Shown here piece after piece: positions 1,863 to 13,814 of a DNA stretch of 14,457 bases. The notes under the pieces were generated by a model. It made no database searches. It saw nothing but the letters and a program-made list of their open reading frames with translations, and had not been told where the DNA came from. Position numbers and translations under genes: made by a program. The stretch spans positions 1-14,457 of the forward strand of contig JAGGVJ010000002.1 of NCBI GenBank assembly GCA_021158055.1, written 5' to 3'. The DNA is from Candidatus Iainarchaeum sp. GTDB taxonomy: Archaea; Iainarchaeota; Iainarchaeia; JAGGVJ01. The first letter of the stretch is position 1. Each line of letters starts with the position of its first letter.

Positions 1863-3026
1863 ATGAAAGAAGTTTACATCATCGGAACAGGAATAACTAA
1901 ATTCGGCGAACTCTGGGACAAAAGCTTTCGCGACCTCGCAGTAGATGCCGGAATACAAGCAATAGCTGACTCAAAAGTTGACGTCAGTGAAATAGACGGG
2001 GTCTTCGGAGGCACCATGAGCTCGGGAAGATTCATAGGACAGGAGCATGCGGCAGCACTAATCGCAGACTACGCGGGAATAACCCCGAAACCGGCAATAA
2101 GATGCGAAGCAGCATGCGCTTCAGGAGGCGTTGCTTTCCGCGCAGGGTACTTTGCTGTCGCGTCAGGCGCAATGGACACAGCAGTAGTCGGAGGCGTTGA
2201 AAAAATGACAGACGTCTTCACAGAACAGGCAGCAGTAACTCTTGGGGGCGCGGGAGACCAGGAATGGGAAGTGTTCAACGGAGCAACTTTCCCTGCACTG
2301 TATGCGCTGATTGCAAGACGGCACATGAAAGAATTCGGCACAACCGAAGAACAGCTTGCTCAAGTCGCAGTCAAAAACCACCTGAACGGCTCAATGAACC
2401 CAATCGCGCAATACCAAATGCCGATAACAATTGAAACCGTAATGAACTCAAGCCCTGTCGCCGACCCGCTAAAACTCTTTGACTGCTCGCCGATAACAGA
2501 CGGCGCAGCAGCAGTGGTGATTGCTTCAAAAGAAGTTGCAAAAGAACACTGTGAAAAACCAATCAAAGTACTGGCATCAGCACAAGCATCAGACACCCTT
2601 GCACTGCACGACAGGAGAAAAATAACAACTCTAGACGCAACACGCTTTGCCGCAAAAGACGCGTTTAAACAGGCAGACACAACCCCCAGCAAAATAGACA
2701 TTGCAGAAGTACACGACTGCTTTACAATAGCTGAAATCTGCGCAATCGAAGACCTTGGCTTTTTTGAAAAAGGAAAAGGAGGAAAAGCAACCGAAGACGG
2801 ACTGACCGCGCTTGAAGGACAATTGGCGGTAAATACTTCCGGAGGGCTGAAAGCATGCGGCCACCCGGTCGGAGCAACAGGAATAAAACAAATAGTTGAA
2901 GCAGTCAAACAACTCAACCAGGAAGCAGGAAAACGCAACAGAAAAAATGTTGATCTGGCATTAACCCACAACGTCGGAGGGACCGGCGCAACAGCAGTGG
3001 TTCATATCCTCGGGAGGGGATACTAA
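1863..3026 (+). CDS. Acetoacetyl-CoA thiolase (acetyl-CoA C-acetyltransferase), archaeal mevalonate-pathway type
   Basis: Motifs EAACASG (catalytic Cys), [28 protein letters not shown] and HNVGG. Lies between HMGS and DUF35. Confidence 0.96.
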
Positions 3027-3430
3027 TGGCAAGCAATTCAATTTCATTGATGTGGAGAGGAATACAACAGCGCTACAATTTAATCGGAACAAAATGCAAA
3101 ACCTGCGGCCAGGCATTTTTCCCGCCAAGAAAAAACTGCCCAAAATGCAGGAGAAAAGGACAAATAGAAGAACTGAAATTCTCAGGAAACGGAAAAGTGT
3201 TCAGCCACTCGGTTGTCCACGCACCGCCGGAAGGATTTGAAAACCAGGTTCCGTACATCATCTCGCTTGTGGAACTTGAAGAAGGCCCTCTTGTAACTGC
3301 ACAAATCGTTGACTGCGAGCCAAGTGAAATACAAATAGGAACCAAAGTCAAAAAAGTATTTCGAAGGGTAAGTGAAGGCGGAAAAAGCGGAATAATCAAC
3401 TACGGGTACAAATTCGTGCTTGACAGGTAG
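3026..3430 (+). CDS. DUF35 Zn-ribbon/OB-fold protein (scaffold subunit of the thiolase/HMGS complex)
   Basis: CKTC...PPRKNCPKC zinc ribbon followed by an OB fold (PYIISLVELEEG), C-terminal YGYKF. TAATG overlap with the thiolase stop codon. Confidence 0.95.
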   Translation: MASNSISLMWRGIQQRYNLIGTKCKTCGQAFFPPRKNCPKCRRKGQIEELKFSGNGKVFSHSVVHAPPEGFENQVPYIISLVELEEGPLVTAQIVDCEPSEIQIGTKVKKVFRRVSEGGKSGIINYGYKFVLDR

Positions 3431-3500: not shown

Positions 3501-4457
3501 CTAAAACTTTATTTTCATGCCCTTGCTATTGTTTGAAAACAGCACAACCCTGCTTGCGGGAACCTCTGCAACTATTTCCATCCCGCAGTGTTCTGCAACC
3601 TGTTTTGAAAACTCCTGCACTTCAGCGTGCGAAGGCATGTTTTCAATTGAAAGCCTGTGCCTTGAATACCCCACAAACATGTAAGCTTTTATTTCCACAA
3701 AATCGGTCTGGCTTTTCTTTATCAGTTCAGCGTATCCTTTCGGGTCAACCATGTTGATGTTTTTCACGGCGGTTATCCTCAAAACCCGCCTGGTGTCAAG
3801 TGAAGGAAAAAGTTCAAGGGAATCGTTTATCCTTTCCCATGAGTTTTCAATCAATGGAGCATTGATTTTTTTGTGAAGCTCCTTGCTTGGGGCGTCAAGA
3901 GAAAGGTAAAGCTGGGTCGGAAGCGAATCCAGATTCTTCAGTACTTTCGGGTTGTTTGCGTTTGACACAAGAAAAGTAGTCATGTTCCTTTTGTGAAAAG
4001 CACTTATCAGGTCGCTCAGGTAAGGGTACATTGTGGGCTCGCCCGAAAGGCTTATTGCTGCGTGACGCGGGTCTTGCGCTTCCTTTAAAAGTTCCTGGTT
4101 GAACAACTCGGGGGCTCCGAAATAACCGCTTAAAAGAAGCCTTTGTCCCTTGATGCAGTCGTCAATTATTTCATCTGGCTCATCCCAGCATGAATCCTTT
4201 GGGACATCATCTGCAATCTCCCACGGCCTCCAGCAAAAAATACACTGCTGGGTGCAAAAGTTCACTGCCGGCGTCATCTGCAGGCACCTGTGGCAGTTTA
4301 TCCCGTAAAACTTTTCCTTGTAGCAGACCCGCCCTGTCTTTATTTTTTCATGAGTCCAGTGACAGATTTTCACTGCCGAGTGGCCGCCGACCAGGTAATA
4401 GTGCTGCCGCTTGAGAACGCGAACCGCAGTGTCTGACAATAAAGGTTTTTTATTCAT
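3501..4457 (-). CDS. taw1: 4-demethylwyosine synthase Taw1/TYW1 (radical SAM, tRNA-Phe wyosine pathway)
   Basis: Motifs HSAVKICHW, CYKEKFYGI (Schiff-base Lys), HRCLQMTP, CTQQCIFCWR (CxxxCxxC), AISLSGEPT, TQLYLSLDA and EIKAYMFVGYSR. Confidence 0.96.
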   Translation of the reverse strand: MNKKPLLSDTAVRVLKRQHYYLVGGHSAVKICHWTHEKIKTGRVCYKEKFYGINCHRCLQMTPAVNFCTQQCIFCWRPWEIADDVPKDSCWDEPDEIIDDCIKGQRLLLSGYFGAPELFNQELLKEAQDPRHAAISLSGEPTMYPYLSDLISAFHKRNMTTFLVSNANNPKVLKNLDSLPTQLYLSLDAPSKELHKKINAPLIENSWERINDSLELFPSLDTRRVLRITAVKNINMVDPKGYAELIKKSQTDFVEIKAYMFVGYSRHRLSIENMPSHAEVQEFSKQVAEHCGMEIVAEVPASRVVLFSNNSKGMKIKF

Positions 4458-4565
4458 TTAAACACCAGAAACTAAACTCAAACCAAGATTTTCTGAAAAC
4501 AATATTCTAATGAATATATCACTAATTGTCACTAACAACAGTCTTCAGAGAATAAAAATTTTGTT

Positions 4566-9287: not shown

Positions 9288-10748
9288 CTAAAGCTGGGAA
9301 TAATTCCCGTCATTGAACTCATACAAATATTTCTTTATCTTGTGCCCATTGAAATTATACTTCTTTTTCACTGTTTCCTCTACGCCGTAAAACTCAAAGA
9401 AATCATTTGCCTGCAAATCAAAAATGAAAAACTTTTCCCGAAAGGTCGTTTCAACAAACGAATGCCGGGTGCCGTCGTCAAGCAGCACAGTCACCACCTT
9501 TGCGTTTTCATCCCCGATGCCTTTCAGAACAGAGCACAAAAGAATGCTTGCCTCTTCACTGCTCCCGATTTTTTTTGAAACCACTTCGTCCAAGGAGAGC
9601 CAAAAACTTGATTTCATGTCATGCGGCACAACAACAATGTTTGAACGCAACCAGTCAAACGCGCCTCGAGCAACCTTTAAGTATTCTGTTTCAAACTTGT
9701 AGCCCTCCACTCCCGACATGAACCGGGCAACAAGCGTCGCAACAACCTTATCTTTTGGATTTACCAGCGACTTCATCTGGGCCGACGTCTTTGACTCGCC
9801 TGACTCGACTGCGTCCGCGTAACGGTCAATTACTGTCTGGTACAATTTGTTTTTGCCTTCTGCTTCGGCCAGCTTTTCGGCTTCTTTTGAAAGCTGCTTG
9901 TTTTTATCTGAAATGTTCTTGATTTCTTCCTGCAAATCCTTGTTTTCTTTCTGCAGTCCGGCAAACTTTGACTGCTCTGAAGAAACAGCTGACTTTGATT
10001 CATTTACCTTGTACTTGTAACTTTCCATGAGTTCAGAGTACTCGTTTAATTTTTCCCTGAAAGAATCCCTTTCTTTTGCAATGACACTCACCTGGTTGGA
10101 AAGCAAACTCACCTGCTTGGACAAAGAATCGTTTTCAACCTGCATTGCAAGCACGTTCTTTGAAGACTCGTGAGTTGATTCTAACTCGCTTTTGCCTTTG
10201 TCTTCAAGAGCAGCAATCTTTGCTTCAAGCTGGCTTATGTACTCCTTGTATGACAACCCCTGTTTTTCAAGCGAACTGATTTTTTCCTGACTCTTTGAAA
10301 CCCCTGACTTCAACTCGGCAATAGTCAAAACCTGCTTCAAATCCAGGTTTGAGCCCTTATCCAAAAAAGTCTGCAAGTCCCTTAAATCATCCAGCTTTTT
10401 GGCAATCCTGTTTTCTATTTTGCGTTTTTCTTCAGCTATTGCGTTTTTTTGTTCAATAAACTGCCCGTCGGAAATCTTCCCGTCACGGTAAGAAACAGCA
10501 ATCAAGTCCATTTTCTTGTCCAGGTTGTTCTTTTCAATGTTAAGGGCATTTATCTCAGACCAGATGTCGTCTGAAACCCCTTTCAAAGCATTCCTGCTTC
10601 TTATTAAAAAATAAACACCAACGACAATCGCAACAAGGCCCAAAAAGATGATTCCGTAAATTAAAGTATCATCCAAGGGAATCGCCTCAAATATCCCTGT
10701 TCCCAAAATAATCTGTCCAGCCATATTCTCACTCAAAAATTCAACCAT
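9288..10748 (-). CDS. Membrane-anchored long coiled-coil protein with a C-terminal transglutaminase-like domain
   Basis: N-terminal TM (LIYGIIFLGLVAIVVGVYFLI) then RSR, a SHOCT-like YRDGKISDGQFIEQK segment, and a long K/E/S-rich heptad region. C-terminus AFDWLRSNI...FWLSLDEVV...GSSEEASILLCSVL...RHSFV...FIFD. Start is ATG 10748 or 10724. Confidence 0.8.
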   Translation of the reverse strand: MVEFLSENMAGQIILGTGIFEAIPLDDTLIYGIIFLGLVAIVVGVYFLIRSRNALKGVSDDIWSEINALNIEKNNLDKKMDLIAVSYRDGKISDGQFIEQKNAIAEEKRKIENRIAKKLDDLRDLQTFLDKGSNLDLKQVLTIAELKSGVSKSQEKISSLEKQGLSYKEYISQLEAKIAALEDKGKSELESTHESSKNVLAMQVENDSLSKQVSLLSNQVSVIAKERDSFREKLNEYSELMESYKYKVNESKSAVSSEQSKFAGLQKENKDLQEEIKNISDKNKQLSKEAEKLAEAEGKNKLYQTVIDRYADAVESGESKTSAQMKSLVNPKDKVVATLVARFMSGVEGYKFETEYLKVARGAFDWLRSNIVVVPHDMKSSFWLSLDEVVSKKIGSSEEASILLCSVLKGIGDENAKVVTVLLDDGTRHSFVETTFREKFFIFDLQANDFFEFYGVEETVKKKYNFNGHKIKKYLYEFNDGNYSQL

Positions 10749-10767
10749 AATCTCACTCAAAACTCAA
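10721..10767 (-). repeat. Imperfect 24-bp tandem duplication of the RBS and start codon
   Basis: CCATATTCTCACTCAAAAATTCAA (10721-10744) and CCATAATCTCACTCAAAACTCAA (10745-10767). On the minus strand each copy reads GAGTGAGA(T/A)TATGG. Confidence 0.8.
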
Positions 10768-10968: not shown

Positions 10969-11991
10969 ATGAAAATACTTGTAACAGGCGGGACAGGGTT
11001 CATCGGAAAAGCAGTTGTAAAACGATTGTCTGCAAACGCAAAATACGAGCTTATACTCCTTGTAAGAAACCCGCACAAAACACAAAGCGCACCTGAAAAA
11101 ATAAAATTCATAAAAACAGACCTTTTGGACCCGGACCTAGAAGAAAAAATCCCGAAATGCGATTGCGTCGTCCACATGGCCGGATCCATTGACGAACACG
11201 ACACCTCCCTTTTTGAAACCAATGTCGGCGGGACAAGAAACCTTTTAAAGGCATGCGAAGGAAAAACAAAGCAAATAGTTTTTATGAGCACTGCGGGAGT
11301 GCACGGAGAAAGCAAGGGCCAGACAAACGAAAAATCACATTTTTCCCCGCAAACGCTGTACGAAAAAAGCAAGCTTTACTCTGAACTCGCAATCAGGCGC
11401 TCAAACATCCCGTTCACAATCCTTCGCCCGACACTTGTATTCGGCCCGAACAAGTACTGGGCGCAAATATTCAACCTTGCGAAAAAAAGATTCCCTGTGA
11501 TCGGCTCGGGAAAAAACATGTTCCACACCGTGTTTTTGGAAGACGTGGTGGACGCGATAGAAAACGCTGTGAAGCTTCCTGCAAAAAATCAGGAATATTT
11601 GATTGCAGGACCCGACCCCCACACATACCTTGAAACATACACGGAAATAGCTGCATTATTTCAACAGACGCCAGGGTCAAAACTGCCTGTTTTTATTGTG
11701 AAGATCCTTGCCTTTTTCTCGTCGCTTGCAGGGAAAAAAACCATTGTCTCAAAAGAGCACATAACGAGGCTCATCAGAAACAGGTACTATGACACCAGAA
11801 AAGCACAAAGGGAGCTTGCCTGGAAGCCAAAGACAAACCTGAAAGAAGGACTCGAAAAAACCCTTGAGGTCTTAAAAAAATATAAAAAAGTTGAGTTCAC
11901 AAGCCGAAAAGAACAAGCACAGCCCGCAAACAAAAAAGAACCGGGAAATTTGCCGGATTCCAGGCAAAAAAACAAAAAACCACCTGCCTGA
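10969..11991 (+). CDS. NAD-dependent epimerase/dehydratase (extended SDR family)
   Basis: Motifs MKILVTGGTGFIG, VVHMAG, TNVGGT, MSTAGVHG, YEKSK (YxxxK) and LRPTLVFGP. Start moved to ATG 10969. Lys/Pro-rich C-terminal tail. Substrate unknown. Confidence 0.9.
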   Translation: MKILVTGGTGFIGKAVVKRLSANAKYELILLVRNPHKTQSAPEKIKFIKTDLLDPDLEEKIPKCDCVVHMAGSIDEHDTSLFETNVGGTRNLLKACEGKTKQIVFMSTAGVHGESKGQTNEKSHFSPQTLYEKSKLYSELAIRRSNIPFTILRPTLVFGPNKYWAQIFNLAKKRFPVIGSGKNMFHTVFLEDVVDAIENAVKLPAKNQEYLIAGPDPHTYLETYTEIAALFQQTPGSKLPVFIVKILAFFSSLAGKKTIVSKEHITRLIRNRYYDTRKAQRELAWKPKTNLKEGLEKTLEVLKKYKKVEFTSRKEQAQPANKKEPGNLPDSRQKNKKPPA

Positions 11992-12029: not shown

Positions 12030-12776
12030 TCATTTTGACTTTATCGCGGAAATCAGCTCGGAAAGATTTGCCCTTATCTCCTGCGGTTTTTCACCTAAGA
12101 GACCTGTAAGGATCATGTCCGCACCTGCCTCAACCTGCTGCCTTGCTTCCTGCGCAGAACTTATTCCCCCGCCGGTTAAAAGCGGAACACCGGTAACTTT
12201 CTTCACAGCACTGATAATTTCAGGTTCAAGAGGTGCGTTCACTCCAAACCCCGCGTCAAGATAAATAAGCGACTTCCCCGAATACTCTGAAAACAAAGCA
12301 TAAGAACGCACAATGTCAAGGTTTTGCCTTGGAATCGGTTTCGCATCCCCGATCCAGCTTGAAATCCCACCCGGCTCCATCACAATGTACGAAGTCGGAA
12401 TGGCATCTACCTCAAGCTCAAACACCGTGGGGGCACCGAGAGCCTGCGCTCCGGTAATCCAGTAAGTATTGTTGGAATTCACAAGAGTCATGAAAAAAAT
12501 AGCGTCAGCGTACTGGCTTACAGCGTTTGCGTTCCCGGGAAAAATAATCACAGGCAAACTGCATTGTTTTTTTATTTCAAGAACCAGCTCATCAAGGTCA
12601 GTCACGTGCACGTTCAAGGCACCGCCGAGAACAATGGCATCAGAACCGACTTCCTCAACTGCCTTCATTATTTCCGAAAGACATTTCGGGTTGTGCTTTT
12701 CAGGATCAAGGTAAGTGAAGTGAAGTTTTTGCGACCTGGCTTTTTCCATGAGGTCGTTCCAAACACCTTTTTTCAT
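12030..12776 (-). CDS. Geranylgeranylglyceryl phosphate synthase family (group II-like), paralog B, divergent
   Basis: Motifs HFTYLDPEK, FPGNANAVSQYADAIFFM, YWITGAQALGAP, EPGGISSWIGDAKPIPR, YLDAGFG, TGGGI and GADMILTG. ATGA overlap with paralog A. Confidence 0.9.
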   Translation of the reverse strand: MKKGVWNDLMEKARSQKLHFTYLDPEKHNPKCLSEIMKAVEEVGSDAIVLGGALNVHVTDLDELVLEIKKQCSLPVIIFPGNANAVSQYADAIFFMTLVNSNNTYWITGAQALGAPTVFELEVDAIPTSYIVMEPGGISSWIGDAKPIPRQNLDIVRSYALFSEYSGKSLIYLDAGFGVNAPLEPEIISAVKKVTGVPLLTGGGISSAQEARQQVEAGADMILTGLLGEKPQEIRANLSELISAIKSK

Positions 12777-13540
12777 ATCTTCTCCCTCCCGATTTTTTTG
12801 GTAAAAGACACGATTTCCTTTGCTTTTTCAAACGGGTTGTTTGACTTCTCAATCATTGAAGCAATGTGAATCCCGTCCGCCCCCGCCCGCACAGTGCGCT
12901 CAATGTCTTTCAGGTCCTTTGAGCTTCCCGCGCAAATTACAGGAATGTCAGTGCATGATTTTACGGCCGCAAACATTTCAGGCGTGGGAGGCGCCGGAGC
13001 ACCGCTTCCCGCTTCAAGAATGGTCATCCTGCTTCCGAGGTACTGCCCTGCAAGAGCATACGCCGCAGCCAGATCCGGCTTGTGCCTTGGAATCGGCCTT
13101 GCCTGGCCGACCCACCCCACGGTTTCACCCGGGTCGATTACAATCAGGGAAGTGGGAATCGGTTCAATCCCGAGCCTTTTTATGACCGGCGCCCCAAGCG
13201 CAGGCGCGCCGGTAATCCAATAAGGGTTCATTGAATTCATCAGGCTGTAATAATAAATCGCGTCAGCGTGAGTGGTTATTGTCCCCACGTTTCCGGGAAA
13301 CAAAAGAATCGGCAGATCAATCTCTTCCTTGATCAAACGTGCAATCTGTTCAAGAGGATACCCCTGCGCTCCAGTGGACCCGCCGATAAGAATCACATCT
13401 GCCCCGGCTTCATAAAACGCTTTGGAATTATCAAGCGCTCTTCTCGGCTCTCTTTTCGGGGGATCAATCAACCCGAAAAAACAAACCCCGTCGCTTTCAA
13501 TCACACTGTTTATATGTCTTTCAACTTTCCCGACTTTCAT
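12773..13540 (-). CDS. Geranylgeranylglyceryl phosphate synthase family (group II-like), paralog A, divergent
   Basis: Motifs LIDP, IGGST, LFPGN, LMNSMNPYWITGA, PGETVGWVG, PIPRHKPDLAAAYALAGQYLG and LEAGSGA. ATG 13540 (GTGA upstream) is preferred over TTG 13555. Confidence 0.92.
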   Translation of the reverse strand: MKVGKVERHINSVIESDGVCFFGLIDPPKREPRRALDNSKAFYEAGADVILIGGSTGAQGYPLEQIARLIKEEIDLPILLFPGNVGTITTHADAIYYYSLMNSMNPYWITGAPALGAPVIKRLGIEPIPTSLIVIDPGETVGWVGQARPIPRHKPDLAAAYALAGQYLGSRMTILEAGSGAPAPPTPEMFAAVKSCTDIPVICAGSSKDLKDIERTVRAGADGIHIASMIEKSNNPFEKAKEIVSFTKKIGREKI

Positions 13541-13564
13541 TAAATCACTAATCAAAAATTTTAA

Positions 13565-13623
13565 AAAAACATTAAAAACATTAAAAATCAGATAAAAAAT
13601 ATCTCAATAAAAAATATCTCAAT
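13565..13623. repeat. Short tandem duplications upstream of the GGGPS pair (9 bp x ~2.5 and 15 bp x 2)
   Basis: AAAAACATT units at 13565-13587. ATAAAAAATATCTCA at 13592-13606 and 13607-13621. Confidence 0.75.
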
Positions 13624-13814
13624 CAAACTTTCCGACTGCAAAATTCAAATGATTCGCTGTCTAATCAATCCTTACATCAATCAACTCTTGCATTACTCAG
13701 TTCTTACATATTACACAGTAAACTATTATAAAATTATCAGTCAAAAAGGGCAAGTTATTTCGTCAAAAGACGGAAACCAAATAACTGCAATGACATTCAA
13801 TAGATTAGAGCTAT

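Follow-up and report, generated by a model that had tools for sequence, protein, structure and literature searches.

The first 14,457 nucleotides of contig JAGGVJ010000002.1 of the Candidatus Iainarchaeum sp. assembly GCA_021158055.1 were analysed as a whole and are called the window here. They carry two overlapping genes of the geranylgeranylglyceryl phosphate synthase (GGGPS) family, paralog A and paralog B. Neither product has the canonical active site, and both belong to sequence types that recur, in the same order, in other archaeal genomes. The best explanation at present is that A is a working prenyltransferase with a non-canonical acceptor pocket, to which B is an accessory that probably assembles with it; this combined reading is given an even chance of being right. 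A and B would then form a conserved two-gene module and would not be half-broken copies repairing each other.

Paralog A, an A-type GGGPS of 255 aa (group II, DPANN-type), lies on the minus strand at 12773..13540. Paralog B, a B-type GGGPS-like protein of 248 aa with an ATG start, follows on the same strand at 12030..12776. The ATG of B (12776-12774) and the TGA of A (12775-12773) have the bases ATGA at 12773..12776 (minus strand) in common, which is a start/stop overlap typical of translational coupling. A Shine-Dalgarno-like GGAGG, read from the sequence, is located inside the 3' end of A at 12785..12789 (minus strand), 8 nt before the ATG of B. The open reading frame (ORF) call for A covers 12773-13555; the ATG at 13540 is the likelier start because the A-clade consensus likewise opens with MKxGKVE. 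Both genes are uninterrupted ORFs, and the overlapping pair is present as an earlier note on this DNA had described it. The region upstream of A (13541-13814) is AT-rich intergenic DNA with short tandem direct repeats, AAAAAATATCTCAAT and CATTAAAAA, each occurring twice, which may be promoter elements.

Both proteins are assigned to group II GGGPS/PcrB by profile scores, by full-length likeness at the sequence level and by the Asp that serves for Mg/diphosphate. The Pfam profile PcrB (PF01884) gives 153.5 bits for A and 178.2 bits for B with a cut-off of 23.9, and NCBIfam NF003198 gives 274.2 and 271.1 bits with a cut-off of 247. The equivalog TIGR01769 is matched at 202.4 and 218 bits by the two proteins, above its cut-off of 161.55. 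Both stay below the cut-offs of NF003201 (201.1 and 181.4 against 388) and NF003202 (185.4 and 208 against 353). Full-length alignment with 4MM1, the hexameric group IIa GGGPS of M. thermautotrophicus, is obtained with E values of 4.4e-67 for A and 2.3e-62 for B, and other solved group II enzymes (6NKE, 6JO3, 4JEJ) are also matched by sequence. Between themselves, A and B share 39% identity.

Residue roles and numbering are those of MtGGGPS in the accessible text of PMC9385802; the residue states were read from the translations and from the 4MM1 alignments. According to that text, D25, possibly together with S54, serves for Mg2+/diphosphate. The glycerol-1-phosphate (G1P) site is made of the loops of a single barrel, and the phosphate is gripped by the standard phosphate-binding motif of the barrel in loops beta-alpha 6, 7 and 8. 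Y134, Y178 and E180 are said there to be strictly conserved across both groups, I and II, and to be responsible for stereospecificity and catalysis, and hexamer formation to be driven by an aromatic anchor (W/Y/F/H) on helix alpha-5'.

Paralog A contains LIDP, GGST, PTSLIV, ILEAGSG, CAGSSK in place of VGGGIR (residues 203-208, positions 12917-12934), HIAS in place of VTGT, and GWVG. It retains D25, S54, the catalytic Glu, the GSG/S-G of loop 6 and the anchor Trp, with loops 7 and 8 reading AGS and AS. Compared with 4MM1, Tyr134 and Tyr178 are replaced in A by Leu and Ile, GGG by AGS and TGT by IAS; phosphate binding through backbone amides may survive in spite of the altered loops. Paralog B contains YLDP, GGAL, PTSYIV, YLDAGFG, TGGG, LTG and SSWIG. 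It retains D25, both Tyr, GGG, TG and the anchor Trp, and differs from 4MM1 by Ala for Ser54, Asp for the catalytic Glu180 and Phe for the beta-alpha-6 phosphate Ser. Common to A, B and 4MM1 are the LIDP Asp, FPGN, YWI(T/I)GA, EPGG/E, the anchor Trp and the dimer-interface segments; the source organism of 4MM1 has a single gene, unlike the window with its pair. The Tyr134/Tyr178/Glu180 triad is thus incomplete in each protein, being Leu/Ile/Glu in A and Tyr/Tyr/Asp in B. All of the motif changes named in the earlier note were found again, CAGSSK falling at the same positions on recomputation, and its statements that both copies keep the anchor Trp (GWVG, SSWIG) and that neither is canonical proved correct.

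The extent of the change on the two sides of the active site was compared over 78 columns conserved among 22 canonical enzymes, the N-terminal half being counted as donor and the C-terminal half as acceptor. The 43 donor columns are kept in number of 40 by the DPANN-type GGGPS, 37 by the A clade, 32 by the B main group and 36 by window B. The corresponding numbers for the 35 acceptor columns are 27, 23, 17 and 23. Several derived states are common to the DPANN-type enzymes and A. Tyr178 has become Ile, GGG has changed towards AGG, strand 8 has gained a His ahead of the beta-alpha-8 Gly, and Thr stands for Met at PT(S/A). Beyond the DPANN-type, A further has Tyr134 to Leu, the third Gly to Ser (AGS), the beta-alpha-8 Gly to Ala, and Thr to Ser. 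Ile at Tyr178 and AGG are widespread among single-copy DPANN GGGPS, and the Leu at Tyr134, AGS and AS are additional in A.

The A-type is defined here by PTSL, TILE-x-GSGAP, CAGS and H-I-A-S together with a position inside a clade of 36 rows, and window A belongs to it. PTSL, TILE(R)GSGAP, CAGS and HIAS are common to 91 of the 120 best database clusters for A (56-95% identical), and those with a source name are mostly labelled Aenigmarchaeota. D26, S55, E176, S179, A204-G205-S206 and S228 are invariant in a 35-row A alignment. Judged by this conservation, the A motifs are an alternative set under selection and not a product of decay. The acceptor pocket of A would have been rebuilt (Tyr134 to Leu, Tyr178 to Ile, GGG to AGS, and TGT to IAS close to a newly gained His), after which selection would have fixed this form; the enzyme would move a polyprenyl group onto a three-carbon phosphate acceptor. 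Window A and its 95% identical relative have Ala where 89% of the compared A-clade rows have Arg (ERGSG). The anchor Trp is near-invariant in the A clade and fully invariant in the B clade. Some members from A-only genomes (e.g. P0034, P0038, P0048) have Arg in its place (GETVGRVG), for which the published anchor rule predicts loss of the hexamer.

The B-type is defined here by GG(A/I)LN, SSW, Asp at Glu180, Phe or Met at the loop-6 Ser and a location directly downstream of an A-type gene, all of which are found for window B. As a single query, B matches two close relatives (94% and 87%) and then canonical GGGPS at no more than 49%. An alignment of B with the second PcrB proteins of other A-type genomes recovered 25 protein-database clusters. 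Of these, 24 score at least 392 bits and one scores 291, against 267 for the best canonical protein. These clusters have 46 invariant columns, including D24, Y130, E134, W141 and D174, the last being the Glu-to-Asp position. The catalytic Glu is replaced by Asp, and the beta-alpha-6 phosphate Ser by Phe or Met, in all B members. B of the five other pairs compared, and of most of the 25 clusters, is more altered than window B, with FIDS, GGIL, CLDTGM with a one-residue deletion, YGG and TST; window B has neither the YGG and TST changes nor the basic tails of the main B group. Such Lys/Arg-rich N- and C-terminal tails were observed on many B-type proteins (P0242-P0262) outside the window's lineage, and they could serve in membrane or nucleic-acid binding.

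The two types have different positions in the tree (124 rows, quick IQ-TREE run, LG+G4, with duplicate loci and one 141-aa fragment left out). The A clade (36 rows, SH-aLRT 100) is nested in a DPANN-type clade (61 rows, SH-aLRT 98), which also contains the single-copy GGGPS genes of the window's class. An SH-aLRT of 99 supports the B clade (9 rows), which lies elsewhere and adjoins canonical enzymes of the YLEAGSG/GGG/TGT kind, this last placement being weakly supported (83). A tree constrained to unite A and B is worse by 49 log-likelihood units (p-AU 0.035). By these sequence relationships, A and B are members of different GGGPS lineages and not recent or local duplicates. B would accordingly descend from a separate, canonical-looking GGGPS lineage and have been set immediately 3' of A, its translation coupled to that of A. 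In the A clade and in the B clade alike, the window's copy branches as sister to all other members, which means that the A/B pair predates the split of the window's lineage from the other carriers.

B is under purifying selection and is constrained less tightly than A. The ratio of nonsynonymous to synonymous substitution rates (dN/dS), where dS is unsaturated, is about 0.02-0.05 for A and about 0.06-0.14 for B, and dN of B is about 1-1.5 times that of A in the five other pairs. A near-relative contig compared with the window shows 39 differences in B among the 40 of 102 differences that were listed, 13 of them protein-changing, with three further B protein differences outside this list; dN/dS, computed in this comparison for B only, is 0.14. 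It might be supposed that B is a decaying copy without function, as it is lost in most A-type lineages, has long stem branches and, in another near relative, is 87% identical to the window copy where A is 95% identical. Such decay is hardly credible given that the frame is intact in every full-length B copy examined, 46 columns are invariant over 25 clusters, the start overlap is conserved and dN/dS is as low as stated.

The distribution was surveyed in 371 genomes of another archaeal class and in 40 relatives from the window's class. All of the genomes are metagenome bins, and counts across related genomes are not independent. A full A-type gene is present in 27 of the 371 genomes (58-67% identical), with a fragment in one more. 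A second PcrB gene was found in eight of the 27, and A is the only GGGPS in the other 19. In seven of the eight the second gene is immediately downstream on the same strand, and in the eighth (G137) A lies at the end of one contig and B at the start of a second one; the two A-type genomes found first both had the second PcrB gene directly 3' of A. The 4-base ATGA geometry repeats in three of five other pairs (L034, L077, L080). A metagenome scan from the B alignment yielded 80 loci, only six of them B-type because the search patterns also fit canonical GGGPS, and A was directly upstream in all five with readable upstream DNA. An indirect sign of co-occurrence is that 13 of the 25 B clusters have a longest contig equal in size to that of an A cluster. 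Within the window's class, PcrB is above the cut-off in 39 of 40 relatives and gives a single match in 38; among the 29 loci whose motifs were read (those of 10 other genomes being unread) neither A-type nor B-type genes nor any B partner occurred. The window's genome itself (1.15 Mb, 45 contigs, 95% complete, the sole representative of its order) has no third PcrB gene, so the search for a canonical GGGPS suggested earlier gave none. A weak extra match there (18 bits, contig C19) is a triosephosphate isomerase.

Two further PcrB observations stand apart from the A/B pairs. In the class relative G010 a further PcrB-like match, strongly diverged (38 bits), lies on contig C2 at 76188-76832, not on the contig of its main GGGPS. 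A different, convergent type of PcrB pair occurs on two metagenome contigs, at L186 (2911-3729 on the plus strand with 3747-4493 on the minus strand) and L194 (1312-2124 plus with 2513-3238 minus). Neither member of these convergent pairs is A- or B-type by profile, and one member scores low against both profiles.

Since A is the sole GGGPS in 19 of the 27 genomes carrying it, A does not need B; B could be dependent on A. This bears on the proposal of the earlier note that the losses are complementary and the pair is an obligate hetero-oligomer, each subunit supplying the residues lost by its partner. The first part is true of the window, where each canonical residue is present in at least one of the two proteins, and the translational coupling of the genes also counts for it. 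In the five other pairs compared, however, neither partner retains Tyr178 or the beta-alpha-8 Gly. The acceptor site lies within one barrel, so that residues would presumably not be lendable between subunits and losses in separate subunits would not complement each other. Together with the A-type genomes lacking B, this makes an obligate complementing oligomer very improbable, even though the complex prediction counts in its favour.

In that prediction the A-B complex reached an ipSAE of 0.85, with 0.00 for the best of three controls; for comparison, 58 of 80 solved complexes and 2 of 110 mismatched pairs attain this mark. Three runs had at least 97% of contacts in common, with a partner pLDDT of 86-90. 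The predicted interface is symmetric, with A 97-121 and 156-171 against B 95-119 and 154-169, and looks like the usual dimer interface of the family. What the model indicates is that B keeps a compatible interface, not that A and B prefer each other.

The preferred reading of B as an accessory subunit would fit these features as follows. B retains the barrel with the Mg/diphosphate Asp and the donor half, along with the segments of the dimer interface and the anchor residue, and would most likely join A through the dimer or hexamer interfaces of the family. In the five other pairs compared the remaining two phosphate loops of B are eroded too. B would be catalytically weak or inactive and would modulate, stabilise or localise the enzyme. 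Comparable cases are the small subunit of plant geranyl diphosphate synthase and NgBR/DHDDS, where an impaired homologue binds the active subunit and changes its properties. These heteromeric prenyltransferases resemble the mode proposed for A and B; their folds and reactions are unrelated, and binding between A and B is a prediction.

B could instead be an independent prenyltransferase that binds a polyprenyl diphosphate, uses another acceptor or chain length and is co-expressed with A for lipid synthesis. Purifying selection on B and the invariant Mg/diphosphate Asp would be expected of such an enzyme. The B main group has kept 32 of 43 donor columns against 17 of 35 acceptor columns, as if the donor were the same and the acceptor changed, and the window's genome has two tandem polyprenyl synthases. 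The family also has precedents for new functions in PcrB, MoeO5 and the haloarchaeal IaH1/IaH2 pairs, as far as the accessible text of PMC9385802 describes them. Yet B was not seen without A directly upstream wherever the DNA there could be read, and the phosphate loops erode differently in window B and in the five other pairs, with no convergence on one new pocket. The single-GGGPS relative G001 likewise has two polyprenyl synthases, and the neighbouring genes point to no candidate acceptor. This explanation is therefore considered possible but rather doubtful.

The haloarchaeal IaH1 and IaH2 are a parallel in gene number, as they are likewise two paralogues per genome, to which a broadening of the lipid repertoire is ascribed (Peterhoff et al. 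2014, reported in the accessible part of PMC9385802). According to the same source they are group I enzymes differing at the chain-length limiter of the donor pocket, while A and B differ in the acceptor pocket and in the catalytic Glu. The A and B genes, unlike those of IaH1 and IaH2, overlap, and B is found only directly behind A.

The supply of the acceptor is unusual in the genomes that carry these enzymes. The GGGPS of M. thermautotrophicus uses G1P made by glycerol-1-phosphate dehydrogenase (G1PDH). No match to the G1PDH profiles PF13685, PF00465 and NF002022 was found in the 95% complete genome of the window. GpsA was not found there either (22.8 bits, covering the N-terminal Rossmann part only; FAD-dependent GlpA/GlpD were not searched for), nor was an FGGY (glycerol) kinase. 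An NF002022 match at E 1e-10 is absent from 25 of the 27 A-type genomes; the remaining two are G373, with an iron alcohol dehydrogenase, and G119, with a divergent G1PDH-like protein. Weak PF13685 matches in A-type genomes were considered as divergent G1PDH, and four of the five checked are generic iron alcohol dehydrogenases. The G119 protein, from a genome with an A/B pair (contig C7, L110 1084-2343, 420 aa), has G1PDH as its best match at 107 bits against a cut-off of 413 and by sequence may be a divergent G1PDH. In the window's class, family f3 has G1PDH in 14 of 14 genomes, and all 13 f3 GGGPS loci with motifs read are canonical; no match better than 5e-13 occurs in the 26 relatives outside f3.

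An extended short-chain dehydrogenase/reductase (SDR) occupies the place next to GGGPS. In the window it is an oxidoreductase of 340 aa from the ATG, with TGxxGxxG and YxxxK, at 10969..11991 on the plus strand, convergent with B. In two other pair genomes the SDR is directly upstream of A on the same strand, giving the order SDR-A-B; examples elsewhere are L033 5044-5988 and L034 5046-5996. Canonical loci commonly pair G1PDH with GGGPS, so that the supplier of the acceptor stands beside its user, while the DPANN-type and A-type loci have the extended SDR instead. Over flanks of 1.5 kb, 40 of 47 DPANN-type or A-type loci have this SDR, and no canonical locus out of 43 does. G1PDH was seen beside GGGPS in 37 of these 43 and in none of the 47. 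As related genomes are not independent, these counts are a pattern and not a statistic. Single-copy DPANN-type GGGPS (from the window's class, and proteins labelled Micrarchaeota/Diapherotrites) have the SDR neighbour and no G1PDH, the same as A.

A profile was made from 25 SDRs, in whose alignment TGxxGxxG and YxxxK are invariant. It scores at least 266 bits in the window's genome and in 22 of the 26 relatives outside f3, and in 21 of the 22 the match is on the GGGPS contig at a distance of 4 kb or less. None of the 14 f3 genomes reaches 266 bits, the best matches (153-181 bits) being on other contigs, and such an SDR is also missing from the single closed genome that lacks GGGPS. No NCBIfam equivalog applies, as the best (the lipid-associated HpnA and OleD, and dTDP-glucose 4,6-dehydratase) are far below their cut-offs, and an ESM Atlas search returned generic 3-beta-HSD/epimerase clusters only. 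The SDR neighbour and the missing G1PDH suggest, from gene content, a different supply or a different identity of the glycerol-phosphate acceptor. The idea of an altered acceptor in the earlier note is plausible and gains support, with none of G1PDH, GpsA and glycerol kinase found and the SDR standing where canonical loci carry G1PDH.

A simpler alternative is that A and B are ordinary G1P-dependent isozymes in which the substitutions are tolerated, since backbone amides hold the phosphate and an exchange of Gly for Ala or Ser changes little; a host or an unrecognised enzyme would supply the G1P. Both proteins are above the TIGR01769 cut-off, single-copy DPANN GGGPS commonly have Ile at Tyr178, AGG and His-x-Gly-Thr, and bacteria with GGGPS but without G1PDH are discussed in the accessible text of PMC6431249. 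Nevertheless, the stereospecificity triad is broken, A lacking both Tyr and B lacking the Glu, and both proteins fall short of the NF003201 and NF003202 cut-offs. Neither the strict order of A followed by B nor the replacement of G1PDH by the SDR is explained by ordinary isozymes, and this alternative is judged unlikely.

A wider proposal is that in DPANN without G1PDH the variant GGGPS (the DPANN-type, with the A-type as its extreme) and the adjoining SDR form a G1PDH-independent route to the ether-lipid backbone, with B as a lineage-specific regulatory subunit. It is offered tentatively. In a first version the SDR would be a non-homologous reductase of dihydroxyacetone phosphate (DHAP) that feeds GGGPS. 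In a second version GGGPS would prenylate DHAP, and the lipid-type SDR would then reduce geranylgeranyl-DHAP, setting the stereochemistry. With DHAP as the acceptor, the Tyr residues that read the C2 hydroxyl would be dispensable. In eukaryotic ether-lipid synthesis alkyl-DHAP reductase acts after the ether-bond step, which is a parallel to the swapped order.

Several points weigh against a working A with B as its accessory partner. A could by its sequence be an inactive copy, because both Tyr of the triad called strictly conserved are absent, and A-only organisms might be without any GGGP synthesis and live on host lipids. Missing G1PDH in Micrarchaeota, Iainarchaeota and other DPANN has been read as host dependence in the accessible parts of PMC12892359 and PMC8975820. 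In favour of a working A, CarS and UbiA-type transferases were kept in five of five A-only genomes tested. Window B might still be catalytic, being the least altered B, with both Tyr, GGG and TG kept and a conservative change of Glu to Asp. All genomes being metagenome bins, the absence of B elsewhere relies on single-match searches and 1.5 kb flanks. As for the complex, its score probably comes from likeness, because GGGPS homodimers are solved, and the model would not separate A-B from A-A or B-B. The AU test is marginal (p 0.035) with a group named after the tree was seen, dS is saturated in most comparisons, and biochemistry of A-type, B-type or DPANN-type GGGPS was not found in the literature.

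The group I/II split, the haloarchaeal paralogues and the missing G1PDH in DPANN are already known from the accessible parts of the literature. No description of the tandem pair, the A and B motifs or the link between SDR and GGGPS was found in the literature searched, which did not extend to subscription journals and supplementary files. It is at the GGGPS step that archaeal lipids acquire their G1P stereochemistry, which marks one side of the "lipid divide". Here a whole GGGPS subfamily has dropped residues thought to read that stereochemistry, and a second, dependent paralogue has an altered catalytic Glu. An oxidoreductase also stands at the usual place of G1PDH in genomes that otherwise keep the lipid pathway. 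If the G1PDH-independent route exists, many DPANN scored as unable to make membranes could make them. A, B and the SDR make the assumption of host-lipid dependence directly testable for Micrarchaeota, Iainarchaeota and related DPANN. The A/B pair would also be a natural case of an enzyme paralogue turning into an accessory subunit.

The remaining features concern the surroundings of the pair. A 490-aa ORF at 9288-10760 on the minus strand adjoins the SDR, and its sole match is a CEP76 peptidase-like domain at 22.5 bits, below the cut-off. The window also encodes acetoacetyl-CoA thiolase, HMG-CoA synthase, a DUF35-type partner and geranylgeranyl reductase (GGR). Elsewhere in the genome are HMG-CoA reductase, three UbiA-type transferases, CarS and the two tandem polyprenyl diphosphate synthases. 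The latter lie on contig C33 of the window's genome (G000) at 36743-37498 and 37867-38640, with the best UbiA-type (DGGGPS-like) gene a few kb off at 42286-42942. The presence of the tandem synthases in the single-GGGPS relative G001 indicates that they are not tied to the A/B pair.

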